Below, piece after piece: positions 24,600 to 32,490 of a stretch of 38,265 nucleotides of DNA. The notes below the pieces were generated by a model. That model had not been told where the DNA came from. It did not search any database and saw only the letters and a list, made by a program, of their open reading frames with translations. Source of the stretch: a virus (taxonomy: Duplodnaviria > Heunggongvirae > Uroviricota > Caudoviricetes); IMG/VR virus record IMGVR_UViG_2917870735_000001, positions 1-38,265 of that record, one strand, 5' to 3'. The translations under genes were made by a program, and so were the position numbers. Numbering within the stretch: position 1 is the stretch's first letter; each line of letters starts with the position of its first letter.

Positions 24600-24722
24600 A
24601 AGCTGTGTGGCGAAGTAACCACTCTTAACAGATTACAAGAATTTTTGCGGACCGCGTTAATGATTTTTAATCCCAAAGTCGTATTATTCGTTTTTTACTG
24701 TAGGAGTTAACAGGTTTATATT

Positions 24723-27464: not shown

Positions 27465-28274
27465 TCAATGAACGGTATCGAGCAGCTTTAACAGCTCAGG
27501 GAATCGGGATTCGAAGAAATGCGGCTGCGTCTCGCGCGGATTTGCGGGACTGGTGATGTTCTTGCCGAACATGCAGCCTTTCGCTGTCAGCGACCAGAAT
27601 TTTTTGATGTTGTTAATCGCGGTACGGCTGTATCGTTCGCGTTGTTCAACGATCCCCAGCTTCACCATCTGGTGATATGCCTGATTAGCCGTCAGGCGGA
27701 TACCATACTGCTTCAGCAGTGCACTCAGCGACAGCGTGGGGCGACTTGAGCCATCGTGTGCATCAGCAGGAGCATCAATGGCATAGCGCGGTGCCAGATT
27801 CGGTAATCCAACAGCCTCCTGGAGTTTCTGACAGGCCCCAAGCACAGATGAGTTAGACAGGTTTAACTCCCGACGCATAAAGTCCAGCAGAATCACTCCA
27901 GCCTGCATCTTGTCAGCAGCCTGTCCGGATAATTTTTCCGGTGCGCTGGTTACCATGTCGAAAGTACGGATCACCTTCAGATGGAATGACGGGCTGATCC
28001 ACATTGCATAGGCATACACCAGTTCCTTACAGACATACGTTCCCCGTTCATTTCCCCCATGAATCACACTCACCGGGTCAACACCCAAATTCTGGGTGTT
28101 GGTCAATTCATGAACAAGCTCAACAGTTTGTTGGCTGGAAAGAAACTTTCCTGGCTCCTTGGTTCTTGCATTTGCACCAGATGCTACTGCTGCGCGATGC
28201 AGATCGTTCAGGCTGTAACGACCATAAGCATCACGACGAACTTCAATACCATCAATGACCATCAGATTATTCAT
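27465..28274 (-). CDS. KilA-N domain protein (antirepressor-like)
   Basis: 269 aa; ATG at 28274 with AGGAGAA RBS; N-terminal region with the KilA-N-like pattern (..IDGIEVRRDAYGRYSLNDLHRAA.. ..YAMWISPSFHLKVIRTF..). Confidence 0.55.
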   Translation of the reverse strand: MNNLMVIDGIEVRRDAYGRYSLNDLHRAAVASGANARTKEPGKFLSSQQTVELVHELTNTQNLGVDPVSVIHGGNERGTYVCKELVYAYAMWISPSFHLKVIRTFDMVTSAPEKLSGQAADKMQAGVILLDFMRRELNLSNSSVLGACQKLQEAVGLPNLAPRYAIDAPADAHDGSSRPTLSLSALLKQYGIRLTANQAYHQMVKLGIVEQRERYSRTAINNIKKFWSLTAKGCMFGKNITSPANPRETQPHFFESRFPELLKLLDTVH

Positions 28275-28293: not shown

Positions 28294-28683
28294 TCAGGCG
28301 GCTGCACCCGCCGTTTTCTCGTACTTACTTATAGTGATCTCGACCTTCCCTTCCGGGATAACCGGTCCCCACTCCACCAGCATTCTTTTCACCTGGCTGT
28401 CGTCTTCCCACACACCCGCGTGGGTCAGGGCGTCAAACAGCGCCTTGTTATAGTTATCCAGATCGCGGATCCGGTTATCCGGTGGAAACAACACGATCTC
28501 CACTGAAGCAGGTGCCGACGTTGGTTTCGGCAGACGACGTAACTGCTCAATGATGGCGGCACACGCCGCGCCCTGGAATTTGCGCCCCGCCGCGCTTATC
28601 AGGCTCTTACCTGCAAACGCCCCTTTGTTGGGGTGTCGCCAGTACGTGTTCACGCTGGGCGGAAAAGGCAGAATCAGCTTCAT
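28294..28683 (-). CDS. rusA: RusA-family Holliday junction resolvase
   Basis: 129 aa; ..RDLDNYNKALFDALTHAGVWEDDSQV.. matches the remembered RusA catalytic core (DLDN..K..DAL...W.DD.QV); ATG overlaps upstream stop (ATGA). Confidence 0.8.
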   Translation of the reverse strand: MKLILPFPPSVNTYWRHPNKGAFAGKSLISAAGRKFQGAACAAIIEQLRRLPKPTSAPASVEIVLFPPDNRIRDLDNYNKALFDALTHAGVWEDDSQVKRMLVEWGPVIPEGKVEITISKYEKTAGAAA

Positions 28684-29006
28684 ACTTTCAGGCCCCTCTC
28701 ATGTAACCAGTAGGCTGCACGCAGCCTAGCGTTTTCCTCACCGGCAAGCAGTGCGCGGATAATCCCGACCGCCTCGCTGTCGTCGTCCTTCACCGCGGTA
28801 TGAAGCGTGATCCCCCGGGCCACGCCACGCTTTATCGTGATGACGCCTTTTTTCTCCAGTGCGCGAAGATGCTCCACCGCTGCATTCACTGAACGGTATC
28901 CCAGCATGGTTGCCACCTCCTGATTGGTTGGCGGGAAGCCACGTTCTTTCTGATAAGAAATCAGCATATCCAGCACCTGCTGCTGGCATTGAGTTAACGT
29001 CGTCAT
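28680..29006 (-). CDS. LexA N-terminal DNA-binding-domain-only protein
   Basis: From ATG 29006: MTTLTQCQQQVLDMLISYQKERGFPPTNQEVATMLGYRSVNAAVEHLRALEKKGVITIKRGVARGITL.. closely parallels the remembered E. coli LexA N-terminal winged-helix domain ([66 protein letters not shown]); no S24 peptidase domain follows. ATG overlaps the upstream TAA (TAATG). Confidence 0.6.
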   Translation of the reverse strand: MTTLTQCQQQVLDMLISYQKERGFPPTNQEVATMLGYRSVNAAVEHLRALEKKGVITIKRGVARGITLHTAVKDDDSEAVGIIRALLAGEENARLRAAYWLHERGLKV

Positions 29007-29494
29007 TAAGCCCCCACGTAATTCCCTGACAGATACCACTCTTCACCCGATGCAGCGCGCTTGCTGCTTTTCCGTAAACACCGCTCACGACGCGCAAGAA
29101 AATTGTTTCGCTCTTGCTGGGAGTGGCTTTCACGGAATGCCGCCATCCACACCGTTGCAGCACGACGAAATAAGCCCCTGGACTCCAGTTCTTCAGCCTG
29201 GCGGGTCAGGCACAAAATCACCCGCGGGTCGTTAGTGCCGACATAGAAATTGCGCACAGGTCTGGATTCACGAACTGGTTGCGGTTCCGGCTCCTGCGGT
29301 ATCTCAGTCAGGCGAGGGAAATGTCTGCGTGTATCCCCTTCACAACGGTGAGCCACACGCCCACTCTGACGTAACTTGCTTGCTGACTGCAGAACGCGCT
29401 GTCGTGAGTAACCTGCAAAAGCATCCGCAATGTCTCCGGAAGTACACCCCGGATGGGCTTCAATGAATTTCTGAACGTCATTCAAAAGACTCAT
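29006..29494 (-). CDS. hypothetical protein of replication module
   Basis: About 162 aa from ATG 29494 (2 nt after the initiator stop); basic, Arg-rich C-terminus; no recognised motif. Too short to be a helicase loader. Confidence 0.45.
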   Translation of the reverse strand: MSLLNDVQKFIEAHPGCTSGDIADAFAGYSRQRVLQSASKLRQSGRVAHRCEGDTRRHFPRLTEIPQEPEPQPVRESRPVRNFYVGTNDPRVILCLTRQAEELESRGLFRRAATVWMAAFRESHSQQERNNFLARRERCLRKSSKRAASGEEWYLSGNYVGA

Positions 29495-29496
29495 GA

Positions 29497-30438
29497 TCAC
29501 CCCCTGAATCCTGCCGGGATCTGGCTGTAGTCCACGTTGTCGTAACTGGCTTTAAAGTACGGGTCTTCGCGTTTTTCTGTGTACGTGCTGACGGACGGTG
29601 ATAAGCGCAGGGAAAGTTCATCCCATTTTTCCCGCAATTTCGATGGGCTGAGGACGTTACGGCACCAGAACGGGTCACGACTGACGCGGCTGTACATCTC
29701 GCAGATTTGTTTGTGAGTGCGACCATCCTGAACACACATCAGGCGAATTTCGTTTGCCCAGGCTGTCCAGTTTGGTTCTTTGGGACGAACCACCTCGCCG
29801 TCACATTCGGCGGCCTGCTCGTACAGGGCGATGATTTTTTTCCAGAGCCACTGTGCACAGGTCAAATCATCCTGCGTTCCCCACTGGCGCTTTTTAGGGC
29901 TGAATACAACCGCATCAGGATGGCGAGTTAAAAAATCCTGTTCAGCCTTCTGCGTGTCCGGTTGCGAAGCGTCCGGACGAGAAGTTTTTTTATCTGACGG
30001 ATCATGTTTTGATTTTACTGACGGATCCCCGCCAGATTCTGACGGGTGAAAACCCGCTTTTTTGCCAGATTTCGACGCATCAAATTTTGACGGGTCAGAT
30101 TTTGATGCGTCAGATTTTGACGGGTCAGAATCTGACAGTTGAGAAAGTGCCGCAGCCTGAAGCTTTGCAACGTTAAGCTGATAGACGTTCGACGCATTGC
30201 GGTTACCCTGGCGACGCGCCTTACGCGTTAACCAGCCTTCTGCTTCCAGCCGTGCGATAGCCGTTCTTACAGTACTCACCCCTGCGCCAATCTGGCGGGC
30301 AATGGTTTCAATTGATGGCCAGCACACACCTTCGTCATTACTGAAATCAGCCAGGCGGGCCATAATTGCCACACTGGATAATTTCATGCCTGACGCTGCG
30401 CAACCATCCCATACATAGCCGGTTAATTTAGTGCTCAT
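29497..30438 (-). CDS. replication initiator (O-like) with N-terminal winged-helix DNA-binding domain and internal origin iterons
   Basis: 313 aa; N-terminal HTH (..WPSIETIARQIGAGVSTVRTAIARLEAEGWL..); central low-complexity linker DPSKSDASKSDPSKFDASKSG encoded by tandem DNA iterons, as in the lambda O architecture. Confidence 0.65.
   Translation of the reverse strand: MSTKLTGYVWDGCAASGMKLSSVAIMARLADFSNDEGVCWPSIETIARQIGAGVSTVRTAIARLEAEGWLTRKARRQGNRNASNVYQLNVAKLQAAALSQLSDSDPSKSDASKSDPSKFDASKSGKKAGFHPSESGGDPSVKSKHDPSDKKTSRPDASQPDTQKAEQDFLTRHPDAVVFSPKKRQWGTQDDLTCAQWLWKKIIALYEQAAECDGEVVRPKEPNWTAWANEIRLMCVQDGRTHKQICEMYSRVSRDPFWCRNVLSPSKLREKWDELSLRLSPSVSTYTEKREDPYFKASYDNVDYSQIPAGFRG
29990..30140. 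repeat. replication origin iterons (tandem roughly 15-bp repeats, consensus about ATTTTGACGGGTCAG) inside the initiator gene
   Basis: Plus-strand copies at about 30067..30082, 30083..30098, 30099..30113, 30114..30128, 30129..30138, with further degenerate copies at 29993..30050; adjacent T-rich stretch at 29985..29992. Confidence 0.6.
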
Positions 30439-30786: not shown

Positions 30787-31340
30787 GCGTTAGTTTCTCC
30801 ACAATTAGAAGCAATCGACGCCACGACGCCCGGAGCTGCACACTCGCGGGCGTCATTACTTTCTGAAATGCAAAAGATTTTGTAGACCAGTGCTGCATGC
30901 TCCTGCAGCTTCGAAATTGACAGGTACAGTTCGTCGTTAATTGCTGCCTGCTCGTGTGGTTCCACCACCCCATCTTCAATTGCTGAACGAATCTGTTTTG
31001 AATAACTGCCGATCTGTTCAATGACCTCCAGCAGGCGTTGATTGATATCGGCGTTCTCTACTTCCTCAATTTCAGGAAGCGATACAAACACCCCACCAGC
31101 AGACTGTGCGACTGCATCCGCAATGTGGTGAGTGCCAGCAGCACGCTGTAAAACCATTGCCCATCCCAGCGGGAAAATCTGATCGCCATCGGCACGAAGG
31201 CGGTTGAATAAAGCGTTCTCTGTTACATCCAGCCAGTCAGCAGCTTCAGCGTACCCCCCCGGCAACGCCGCGATAGTTTTTCTGACAGCTTTCACGTACC
31301 ACTCAGGCTGTTTTTCTACTTTCCAGTGATGCTTACCCAC
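30783..31340 (-). CDS. early regulatory protein in CII position (possibly YdaT-like)
   Basis: 185 aa; GTG start at 31340 with AGGAGG RBS, overlapping cro-like 3' end; assignment rests on synteny (cro, then this gene, then replication genes), not on sequence recognition. Confidence 0.4.
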
Positions 31341-31593
31341 GGCTTACCTCCTGTTCCTGTGGTTTAAACTCATTCCGGTTTTGACTAGATTGAAAACGAG
31401 CAGGGTAGAGAATCTGCATTTCGCTGATTTCGCCCTTAAAAAAATTGGCCAGACGTTCTGCAAGATCGATAGATGGAATTTGTTCCAGTCTCTCAATACG
31501 ACTCAGCGTCGCTGGATTGACCTGAACGCCCGCAGCAACATGCTGCAAAGTGAATCCATGCGCCTTACGCACATTTCGTAATGGTGATTGCAT
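31333..31593 (-). CDS. Cro-like HTH (XRE-family) repressor
   Basis: 86 aa; HTH ..HGFTLQHVAAGVQVNPATLSRIERLEQIPS..; ATG at 31593 with GGAGG RBS; divergent from cI across an operator-containing intergenic region. Confidence 0.7.
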   Translation of the reverse strand: MQSPLRNVRKAHGFTLQHVAAGVQVNPATLSRIERLEQIPSIDLAERLANFFKGEISEMQILYPARFQSSQNRNEFKPQEQEVSRG

Positions 31594-31690
31594 ATAACCT
31601 CCACATATTGCGTGATAAGCATATTATTTCACGCAAAAAATTTGCGCAAGTTGATTTGCTTAACGCGCAATAAAGAAATGTAATAAACGC
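31594..31690. promoter_or_regulatory. immunity operator/promoter region (OR-like) with divergent promoters
   Basis: Inverted repeat TTGCGTGA (31608..31615) / TCACGCAA (31629..31636); palindrome TTGCGCAA (31642..31649); further CGCAA half-site at 31666..31670. Candidate rightward-genes promoter on minus strand: -35 TTGCGC, 17-nt spacer, -10 TAATAT. No SD before cI ATG. Confidence 0.6.
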
Positions 31691-32383
31691 ATGAACATAG
31701 GAAACCGAGTCAGACAACTTCGCCAGGCGAAGAACATGAAAATCGCCGATCTTGCTGAAGCAATAGGAGTGGATGCGGCGAACATCTCACGTTTGGAAAC
31801 AGGCAAGCAGAAACAATTTACCGAACAAGCACTGAGCAATATTGCCAAGAGCTTAGGTGTTGATATTGCTGATCTCTTTACCATAGACATCAAAAGTAAT
31901 ACTGTATATAAAAACAGTATTAATGAGGATGTTACGCAGGTGAAGGATGTGTTCCGTATTGAAATGCTGGATGTCAGTGCCAGTGCGGGAAATGGCCTTA
32001 TCCAGGGCGGTGATGTCATTGATGTGATTCATGCCATCGAATACAGAACTGATAATGCTGTATCGATGTTTGGCGGACGACCAGCCAATCACATTAAAGT
32101 TATCAACGTTCGTGGAGACAGTATGTGTCCAACCATAGAGCCAGGAGATCTAATCTTCGTTGATGTCAGTATCAATCAGTTTGATGGAGATGGTATCTAT
32201 GTATTTGGTTTTGATGATAAAATTTACGTCAAACGACTGCAAATGATACCTGACAAATTGCTGGTGATTTCTGATAACCAGATTTACCGCGAATGGGGAA
32301 TTACCAGCGAAAATGAACACCGATTCATGGTCTTTGGAAAGGTCTTAATCAGCCAGTCACAAACCCTTAAGCGACACAATTAA
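31691..32383 (+). CDS. cI: CI-type repressor (HTH_XRE plus S24 LexA-like autopeptidase domain)
   Basis: 230 aa; N-terminal HTH (..MKIADLAEAIGVDAANISRLETGKQ..), C-terminal S24 domain with Ser motif (..VRGDSMCPTIEPGDLIFVD..) and Lys (..YVKRL..); divergent from cro-like gene. Confidence 0.9.
   Translation: MNIGNRVRQLRQAKNMKIADLAEAIGVDAANISRLETGKQKQFTEQALSNIAKSLGVDIADLFTIDIKSNTVYKNSINEDVTQVKDVFRIEMLDVSASAGNGLIQGGDVIDVIHAIEYRTDNAVSMFGGRPANHIKVINVRGDSMCPTIEPGDLIFVDVSINQFDGDGIYVFGFDDKIYVKRLQMIPDKLLVISDNQIYREWGITSENEHRFMVFGKVLISQSQTLKRHN
31900..31919. promoter_or_regulatory. SOS-box-like palindrome TACTGTATATAAAAACAGTA inside the cI coding sequence
   Basis: Matches the LexA box consensus TACTG(TA)5CAGTA at 18 of 20 positions, with both CTGT/ACAG arms and TA flanks intact; lies in the linker-coding part of cI. 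Confidence 0.4.
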
Positions 32384-32402: not shown

Positions 32403-32427
32403 AGCCACTAGAAGGTGGCTTTTCATT
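32403..32427 (+). terminator. terminator-like hairpin downstream of cI
   Basis: Stem agccac / gtggct (6 bp) with 6-nt loop followed by TTTTCATT; 20 nt after cI stop. Confidence 0.5.
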
Positions 32428-32436
32428 GCCCACAAC

Positions 32437-32490
32437 ATTGCACATTACGCAATAAAATACTTGCACAGCACGCAATTTAATTTTATCTTT
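32437..32490 (+). promoter_or_regulatory. second operator cluster (OL-like) with candidate rightward early promoter
   Basis: Same half-sites as OR: ATTGC..GCAAT (32437..32453) and TTGCA..CGCAA (32461..32475); candidate -35 TTGCAC (32461..32466) and AT-rich -10 around 32481..32490. Confidence 0.35.

Follow-up and report, generated by a model that had tools for sequence, protein, structure and literature searches.

A LexA-type operator and a predicted internal translation initiation region within the cI repressor genes of enterobacterial prophages

A LexA-type operator in the interdomain linker of cI

The stretch of DNA analyzed here, hereafter the window, comprises 38,265 nucleotides from a virus of the class Caudoviricetes (IMG/VR record IMGVR_UViG_2917870735_000001), and our subject is a 20-bp palindrome, TACTGTATATAAAAACAGTA, that lies within the open reading frame (ORF) of the cI-type repressor of this phage (Table 1). 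The palindrome agrees with the consensus of the LexA (SOS) operator, TACTG(TA)5CAGTA, at 18 of the 20 positions, both mismatches being located in the spacer, and encodes the residues N-T-V-Y-K-N-S (codons 70-76 of the 230-amino-acid ORF). The box maps to the linker-coding part of the gene because the helix-turn-helix (HTH) domain (Pfam HTH_3/HTH_26) spans residues 7-65 of the repressor and the Peptidase_S24 domain residues 104-218. The initial annotation of the window had reported both the 18-of-20 match, including the CTGT and ACAG arms, and the position in the linker; re-matching of the window bore out the former, and the Pfam domain limits the latter. The umuD and sbmC boxes of Escherichia coli are high-affinity LexA operators. 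Letter for letter, these two boxes are the same 20-mer as the one in cI (PMC3009722 Table 4).

The surrounding gene is called cI or prophage repressor in phages SfII and mEp460 and in Stx2a phages. The closest phages are these three kinds, with several Stx2a phages among them, and, at a greater distance, ST64B, Klebsiella prophages and Citrobacter phiNP, in which the gene is annotated likewise. In an alignment of six diverse homologues, Ala99-Gly100, Ser144 and Lys181 are invariant. The neighborhood is that of a lambdoid immunity region, with a divergent cro gene, a CP76/cII-like gene, operator repeats on both sides of cI and a terminator, which agrees with the cI/cro/cII annotation of SfII. 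By its domains, cleavage site, Ser/Lys dyad and synteny, the window cI is a repressor of the lambda type that is predicted to cleave itself. This cI type is very common: of 5426 complete E. coli genomes, 1040 (19%) encode it.

Within the 38-kb window, TACTGTATATAAAAACAGTA is the sole site with three or fewer mismatches to TACTG(TA)5CAGTA, no further good LexA box being found elsewhere in it, and none of 100 dinucleotide-preserving shuffles produced such a site. The strict core CTGT-N8-ACAG occurs twice in the 38 kb, compared with 0.35 occurrences expected; the other copy, at 24698, has a GC-rich spacer. An apparent excess of the relaxed pattern CTG-N10-CAG (26 sites vs 9.3 expected) was discarded as a signal because the trinucleotide (CTG/CAG) content of the window alone predicts 23.6 such sites.

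Conservation of the operator was assessed in a set of homologues drawn from annotated phages, one genome per species and IMG/VR viral contigs, altogether 305 genes with 187 distinct coding sequences (CDS) that are 49-100% identical to the window gene at the nucleotide level. The hosts are enterobacterial and belong to at least 15 genera, among them Escherichia, Shigella, Salmonella, Citrobacter, Klebsiella, Kluyvera, Pseudescherichia, Trabulsiella, Buttiauxella, Pantoea, Mixta, Rosenbergiella, Dryocola, Proteus and Serratia. Alignment by codons showed that CTG-N10-CAG is retained at the same codons in 185 of the 187 distinct CDS, and the full CTGT-N8-ACAG in 171. The homologues contain 47 distinct 20-mers, which encode the hexapeptide TV[YCHFS][KINEL][NHSDYTP]S. 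From the box-bearing genes, we derived a non-redundant set of 54 sequences with less than 92% nucleotide identity, and the logo of this set, TACTGTATATA[AT][AT]nACAGT[AG], matches the LexA consensus. The information content reaches 2 bits at CTGT and CAG and is far below 1 bit over most of the flanks, except for conserved Phe-Thr codons upstream of the box.

Several features of these alignments separate the DNA from the protein that it encodes. All box-bearing sequences use ACT for Thr71, and AGT encodes Ser76 in each of them except Dryocola L028, which has AGC. Codon 75 specifies seven different amino acids across the homologues, its third base nevertheless always being the C of CAG, and is the only codon of cI that combines high amino-acid entropy with low third-position entropy. 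The third-position entropy of the seven-codon window that covers the box is 0.84, compared with a mean of 1.41 for the gene, and is the lowest value found (rank 1 of 224). The eight arm bases have a mean pairwise identity of 92.5%, compared with 56% in the left and 41% in the right linker flank; the value is 68% over the gene as a whole and 45% over all its third positions. Among 80 close relatives of the window gene (33 distinct CDS), the arms are intact throughout and the box varies only at spacer position 9 (Tyr/Cys/Phe), so that the disruption by synonymous changes in near-identical genes for which the initial annotation had suggested looking was not observed. Because the arms and the synonymous sites are fixed while the amino acids and the linker flanks vary, we conclude from these alignments that selection is acting on the bases of the LexA site, rather than on the encoded protein. 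Given the conservation across homologues, together with the result of the shuffles, a chance match in an AT-rich linker, the caveat attached to the box in the initial annotation, is excluded.

The box-bearing loci with a named host all come from Enterobacterales, except for a 1.4-kb contig (L032) that is filed under Actinomadura. The LexA proteins of Enterobacterales share the CTGT-N8-ACAG motif. In sequence, conservation and hosts, the element is a LexA operator of the gammaproteobacterial type, to which LexA is predicted to bind.

The box was lost in two lineages, Dryocola clanedunensis KV18 and Phaseolibacter flectens. The homologue in P. flectens (L031/L195; 39% identity) lacks the Ala-Gly pair, the box and the internal initiation site described below, and along with these has lost the catalytic Ser (GDSM to EDNM) and Lys (KR to RR); a gene resembling the LexA DNA-binding domain (DBD) is located about 3 kb from it. 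This lineage may have switched to a different induction mechanism.

A further peculiarity of the region is codon 67 (31889-31891), located between a candidate -35 element and the box, which remains hypervariable when nearly identical genes of E. coli are compared. Its variants CTC, GTC, TTC, ATC and CAC encode L, V, F, I and H, respectively, with the first base shifting while the neighboring codons stay fixed.

The internal initiation region and candidate promoters

We scanned the cI genes for internal starts by pairing the 14 nucleotides upstream of every in-frame ATG, GTG and TTG with the 3' end of 16S rRNA, at a threshold of -5 kcal/mol or lower. Besides the conserved Met of the GDSM motif, the scan singled out one place only, which corresponds to codon 84 for sequences of the E. 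coli/Salmonella group and to codon 87 for the majority of the others. An in-frame start (GTG or ATG) preceded by a Shine-Dalgarno sequence (SD) lies 7-23 codons past the box in 45 of the 54 non-redundant box-bearing genes, the background in other parts of these genes being 0.067 per equivalent window. When synonymous codons were resampled with the protein kept constant, 9.3 such genes of 54 were expected, and the maximum in 20,000 draws was 20. Because synonymous resampling yields far fewer initiation sites than the 45 observed, the signal stems from codon choice and not from amino-acid composition. The internal SD itself differs by lineage (GAGGA, GGAGAGG, AAGGA, GGAGA, CAGGAG, GAGGT, AGGAGGGAGG, AAGGGGGGG and AGGAGGGAGGGA), and so do the residues encoded over it. 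The initiation site is absent from three sequences, the two box-less lineages and a Dryocola sequence with a GC-rich, degenerate box. All these observations argue that there is codon-level selection for an internal initiation region.

The authentic start of cI presents a different picture. None of the 56 homologues compared has an SD there, and the mean duplex energy is -1.3 kcal/mol, compared with -5.9 kcal/mol at the internal site. Because the true start lacks an SD in 56 of 56 genes, the internal SD does not merely reflect a general use of SDs. A conserved [AT]TGTAAT located 7 nt 5' of the ATG in the same 56 homologues suggests that the PRM mRNA of cI is leaderless, starting at or beside the ATG as in lambda.

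The distance between the box and the internal start is 20 nt in the window and 29-38 nt elsewhere. For comparison, tightly LexA-controlled genes of Salmonella have a box-to-start distance of 21.6 ± 5.8 bp (PMC8072944). The predicted product of 147 amino acids would begin 15 residues before Ala99-Gly100 and would contain the entire S24 domain but no HTH.

In line with these signals, the internal start was selected independently by two annotation pipelines. NCBI calls a 147-amino-acid protein (P0001) on contigs that begin inside cI, and an ENA metagenome annotation calls a 144-amino-acid protein (P0098) from codon 87 of a gene whose full-length ORF is intact. Both were considered as possible stand-alone short S24 proteins and rejected, being gene-calling choices on truncated or intact cI genes. 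Among the best 120 of 1008 matches, there were no stand-alone S24 relatives with an upstream box of their own. Database entries for this family often comprise 215 or 216 amino acids (counted from Met16) or 144 or 147 (from the internal GTG), as in P0003-P0009, P0021, P0022, P0098, P0001 and L307; where the DNA was checked (L307), the 230-amino-acid ORF is intact. Start annotation is thus unreliable for this cI family, probably because the true start has no SD.

Two candidate sense promoters overlap the operator, one with a -10 element formed by the left arm (P-a) and the other with a -10 element in the center of the box (P-b). The arrangement of P-a, TTTAC[CATG]-17-TACTGT, recurs in 38 of the 54 homologues. 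P-b is the best candidate in the window only, and its -35 element is not conserved. On the sense strand, the center of the box reads TATAAT or TATAAA in 27 of the 54 homologues, and TATAAT, TATAAA or TATATA in 34.

In partition-function folds, the probability that the internal SD is unpaired is 0.29 when the 5' flank is included and 0.58 in RNA that starts inside the box. Pairing of the SD with the 5' flank amounts to 0.54, compared with 0.32 in synonymous controls (32 of 45 sequences). Occlusion of the SD by the flank is therefore a moderate family-wide signal, which lends weak support to the nested SOS gene proposed below. In the window, the palindrome extends past the LexA box (arms 31887-31905 and 31914-31932, 79% complementary), with an outer stem that stretches as far as the internal SD; in the full-length cI mRNA, a hairpin of this kind could mask the SD. 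No match to a known Rfam family was detected anywhere in the window.

A possible nested SOS gene and its alternatives

An SOS operator followed by an SD and a start codon is the standard layout of an SOS gene, and we therefore propose, tentatively and without quite considering it probable, that an SOS gene is nested within cI, in which host LexA represses an internal sense promoter and a C-terminal isoform without the DBD antagonizes cI. The operator is located in the interdomain linker, the one region of cI at which the protein can accommodate an invariant stretch of DNA. In the undamaged lysogen, LexA would occupy the operator, cover the -10 element of a weak sense promoter and keep it off. 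Upon DNA damage, activated RecA (RecA*) would trigger self-cleavage of LexA, and the internal promoter would fire at about 31912-31920, giving rise to a short mRNA with a leader of 20-28 nt. Ribosomes would then initiate at GAGGA...GTG (31925/31940) and produce the 147-amino-acid protein, that is, the C-terminal domain of cI with the cleavage site, the S24 active site and the dimer interface. Through mixed dimers with a single DBD, through cleavage in trans, or both, this isoform would antagonize full-length cI and so act as a self-encoded, LexA-controlled antirepressor that reinforces the RecA-stimulated autocleavage of cI. The sequences show the identity of the box to proven operators and the conservation of the operator and, irrespective of codons, of the SD with its start; that LexA binds, that an internal promoter with its start site exists, that the isoform is translated and which way it acts are inferred. 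A fuller version, in which the cI linker of this common prophage family of E. coli and other Enterobacterales holds a complete SOS unit that, in E. coli and Shigella phages, is silenced again during lytic growth by a LexA mimic of the phage, appears more doubtful still.

A promoter inside cI had been raised in the initial annotation, and of the mechanisms considered it appears to be the best supported, given the conserved in-frame SD and start 20-38 nt downstream of the box; the promoter scores themselves turned out to be ordinary. This is one of several points that weigh against a nested SOS gene. Position weight matrix (PWM) scores of 7.0-7.3, those of the two candidates, occur about twice per kb per strand, with the likely PRM and PR scoring 6.5-8.0, and the candidates are not independent evidence because their conserved parts coincide with the Phe-Thr codons and the box. 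An internal sense promoter is thus compatible with the sequence but is the weakest link of the model. Nine box-bearing sequences, which form a Klebsiella-type clade, have no initiation site at codon 84 or 87; the one that they do have, GAGGT-N7-GTG at codon 95, may simply be dictated by the protein sequence. In the window, the spacing between SD and start is long (10 nt), the start codon is GTG, and the signal of SD occlusion by the 5' flank is absent. Translation from the internal start could equally take place on the full-length PRM mRNA, with no involvement of LexA. As far as the sequence goes, the effect may have either sign: the isoform could promote induction or, as a decoy for RecA*, damp it. 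Finally, the homologues are phylogenetically related, so that all the counts given here overstate independence.

The same operator might act on transcription that enters from upstream. In such an elongation roadblock, the main alternative but one that we consider unlikely, LexA bound 210 bp inside cI would stop a fraction of the polymerases coming from PRM or PRE, and the internal SD and start would be unrelated to it; cI synthesis would be low in healthy cells and would rise upon LexA cleavage, buffering the lysogen against transient or weak SOS induction. This explanation needs no statistically significant promoter, an umuD-grade operator certainly lies within the transcribed cI ORF, and the position in the linker, the only place for a fixed 20-mer, is explained equally well. 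However, the codon-independent SD and in-frame start, and their loss together with the box, are left unexplained, and more cI upon SOS induction would oppose the retained S24 autocleavage module. Moreover, in translated genes, a roadblock that lies far from the promoter tends to be weak. The initiation signals on the sense strand are left equally unexplained by a LexA-repressed antisense promoter, a quite improbable alternative in which an SOS-induced minus-strand transcript would run through the 5' half of cI and PRM into cro, lowering cI and raising cro. The palindrome does carry -10-like hexamers on both strands, the center of the Pantoea-type box also reads TATTAT on the minus strand, and, in the window, TTCACC-17-AATACT (score 7.2) adjoins the box on that strand. 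The best minus-strand matches, however, occur at inconsistent positions across homologues, the -35 region that would be required is hypervariable and contains indels, and no conserved minus-strand ORF follows the box. A conserved antisense small ORF for an SOS toxin of the TisB/DinQ kind was likewise considered and dropped, given that no such ORF is conserved among the homologues.

The ligand of the operator could also be a protein of the phage. The window encodes a protein of 108 amino acids that, aligned to residues 2-70 of E. coli LexA, keeps the recognition helix (RSVNAAVEHL vs RSPNAAEEHL in LexA) and has a complete LexA DBD. In the alignment to LexA residues 2-86, LLAGE stands opposite the VAAGE cleavage site, and the protein stops short of the catalytic domain, resembling a truncated LexA that would be uncleavable or cleavable only in trans. 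It is 100% identical to a protein of SfII, is present in 60 phage records, nearly all from E. coli or Shigella, and co-occurs with this cI type in SfII, mEp460, Stx2a_1447, 1720a-02 and PhiR phages. That the box serves mainly this uncleavable protein, which would bind it along with the SOS boxes of the host during lytic growth, nevertheless seems very improbable. In a survey of genome loci with sufficient flank, 23 of them from family members (a 24th, from Acinetobacter, falls outside the cI family and was left out), 20 of the 23 have no such gene within 4 kb of cI, and the remaining three are from Shigella, one Citrobacter and Phaseolibacter, the one distant lineage with the gene nearby and one that has lost the box. 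Phages of Salmonella and Klebsiella yielded few matches, with less than 60% identity, and the protein lacks the dimerizing C-terminal domain of LexA. Hence, the link between the box and this protein that was proposed in the initial annotation is not supported, as co-inheritance, outside E. coli and Shigella phages. Prophages of Salmonella, Klebsiella, Citrobacter, Pantoea, Proteus, Serratia and others do retain the box, so that host LexA would be the general ligand; in the phage of the window, the phage protein may bind the box as well, as an accessory factor confined to the E. coli/Shigella lineage. Least probable of all is the absence of any regulatory role, whether the linker needs T-V-x-x-x-S at the protein level or the site is a recombination joint between the N-terminal and C-terminal modules. 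Thr71, Val72 and Ser76 are indeed nearly invariant as amino acids, but the fixed synonymous sites (ACT, AGT and the C that closes codon 75 across seven residues) have no place in such an explanation, and invariant arms around a spacer that is AT-rich but otherwise free form a LexA logo, a pattern unlike that of a recombination joint.

If an SOS gene is nested within cI, umuD would be a parallel. In umuD, which encodes an S24-family protein, the operator overlaps the -10 element and precedes the start codon by about 20-30 nt. Among solved structures, UmuD/UmuD' is also the one nearest in sequence to the C-terminal domain of cI (E 3e-4), a likeness at the level of the S24 domain only. The window operator shares its 20 bp with those of umuDC and sbmC but, unlike them, lies inside an ORF and encodes seven codons, and the product would be the C-terminal domain of a repressor and not a subunit of polymerase V.

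In architecture, the nearest analogue of the nested gene is found in IS50/Tn5, where the Inh protein is made from an internal in-frame start as a transposase without its N-terminal DNA-binding part and poisons the full-length protein in mixed oligomers. Like Inh, the isoform predicted here from sequence would lack the DNA-binding part and start at an internal codon with an SD of its own; the two differ in protein family, and the short form of the transposase is not switched by LexA. C-terminal fragments of lambda cI exhibit negative dominance, and the C-terminal domain of LexA reportedly cleaves in trans (Kim and Little, 1993). These fragments provide a biochemical precedent for an S24 domain without DBD that acts on the intact repressor, although they arise by cleavage or engineering, and we know of no dedicated internal promoter or initiation site in lambda cI. 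For an operator within an ORF, the nearest analogue is that in purB, where PurR bound about 200 bp from the start forms a roadblock and brings about simple attenuation; as in cI, the operator lies in a coding sequence, but there is no downstream initiation site.

The two known routes of prophage induction by DNA damage are a self-cutting repressor, as in lambda, and a separate antirepressor gene controlled by host LexA, as in 186, N15 and Gifsy. LexA together with gp7 also acts in the immunity region of GIL01. At the rstA promoter of CTXphi, LexA and RstR bind in the phage immunity region (PMC8044961). The operators of both CTXphi and GIL01 belong to intergenic promoters that drive lytic or replication genes and do not lie in the ORF of a repressor. 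In the cases of Tum (186; tum has also been noted in BTP5), AntC (N15) and GfoA/GfhA (Gifsy), host LexA represses a gene whose product inactivates the phage repressor (PMC8044961, PMC3121763). In function, these modules come closest to what is proposed for the cI locus, in that host LexA provides the prophage switch with an SOS input, but each of them is a separate gene with a promoter of its own and a product unrelated to the repressor, and those repressors are not subject to RecA-dependent cleavage. In the window, by contrast, the candidate antagonist is an in-frame isoform nested in the cI gene, and cI keeps the Ala-Gly pair, the Ser and the Lys. The nested isoform would work in the manner of the Tum, AntC and GfoA modules but is not a member of that class, given that its product comes from the repressor gene itself and the repressor has retained the residues for cleavage.

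The locus appears to unite both SOS routes in a single gene: a LexA operator of top-affinity sequence and a predicted ribosome-binding site are embedded in the ORF of a repressor of the self-cleaving type. What would be new is the nesting of a LexA-based SOS input within the repressor ORF, LexA input into a prophage switch being already known. The literature searched, in which subscription journals were not covered, yielded no account of a LexA box within cI or of an internal start site of ST64B sb38. Surveys of LexA regulons that are limited to boxes upstream of start codons (for example, 400 bp, PMC8072944) miss intragenic sites by design. If the proposed mechanism is true, it represents a compact new switch design, in which protein, DNA operator and translation signals overlap under simultaneous selection, and a fast transcriptional SOS input is added to slow RecA-dependent autocleavage. 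It would then bear on the induction of Stx2-converting prophages, of the Shigella serotype-converting prophage SfII and of the Salmonella prophage ST64B.

Other features of the immunity region

The features discussed above and their neighbors are collected in Table 1. The 32-nt imperfect inverted repeat of TTGCG...CGCAA units in the cro-cI intergenic region (31606-31672) represents putative operators for cI and Cro, and inverted and direct operator repeats are found at OR and OL. On the 3' side of the cI terminator (32438-32481), there are two direct 21-mers, TTGCACAnnACGCAAT, located 23 bp apart, which probably represent OL/PL.

Table 1. Positions of the operator, the genes and the predicted signals in the window
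Feature	Position	Strand	Remarks
LexA (SOS) operator TACTGTATATAAAAACAGTA	31900-31919	.	cI codons 70-76
cI-type repressor gene	31691-32383	+	230 aa; HTH, linker and Peptidase_S24 domains
Internal SD, GAGGA	31925-31929	+	duplex with 16S 3' end, -6.4 kcal/mol
Predicted nested ORF	31940-32383	+	147 aa; from GTG (cI codon 84) to the cI stop
Candidate sense promoter P-a	31877-31905	+	-35 TTTACC (31877-82), 17 bp, -10 TACTGT (31900-05, operator left arm); PWM score 7.3
Candidate sense promoter P-b	31884-31912	+	-35 TAGACA (31884-89), 17 bp, -10 TATAAA (31907-12, operator center); score 7.0
Probable PRM	31656-31684	+	-35 TTGCTT (31656-61), -10 TGTAAT (31679-84); predicted
cro-like HTH gene	31333-31593	-	divergent from cI
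Intrinsic-terminator-like hairpin	32403-32420	+	annotated terminator in SfII; would end cI and any nested transcript
Phage LexA-DBD-only protein	28680-29006	-	108 aa; LexA_DNA_bind PF01726, E 3e-19

The early-right operon also encodes a protein resembling PerC-family activators (29006-29500, minus strand) and a KilA-N domain protein (27465-28274, minus strand); no LexA box was identified upstream of either gene. Expressed from the early operon, the LexA-like protein of the phage could repress SOS boxes again during lytic growth, including those of the LexA-controlled antirepressors of rival prophages.

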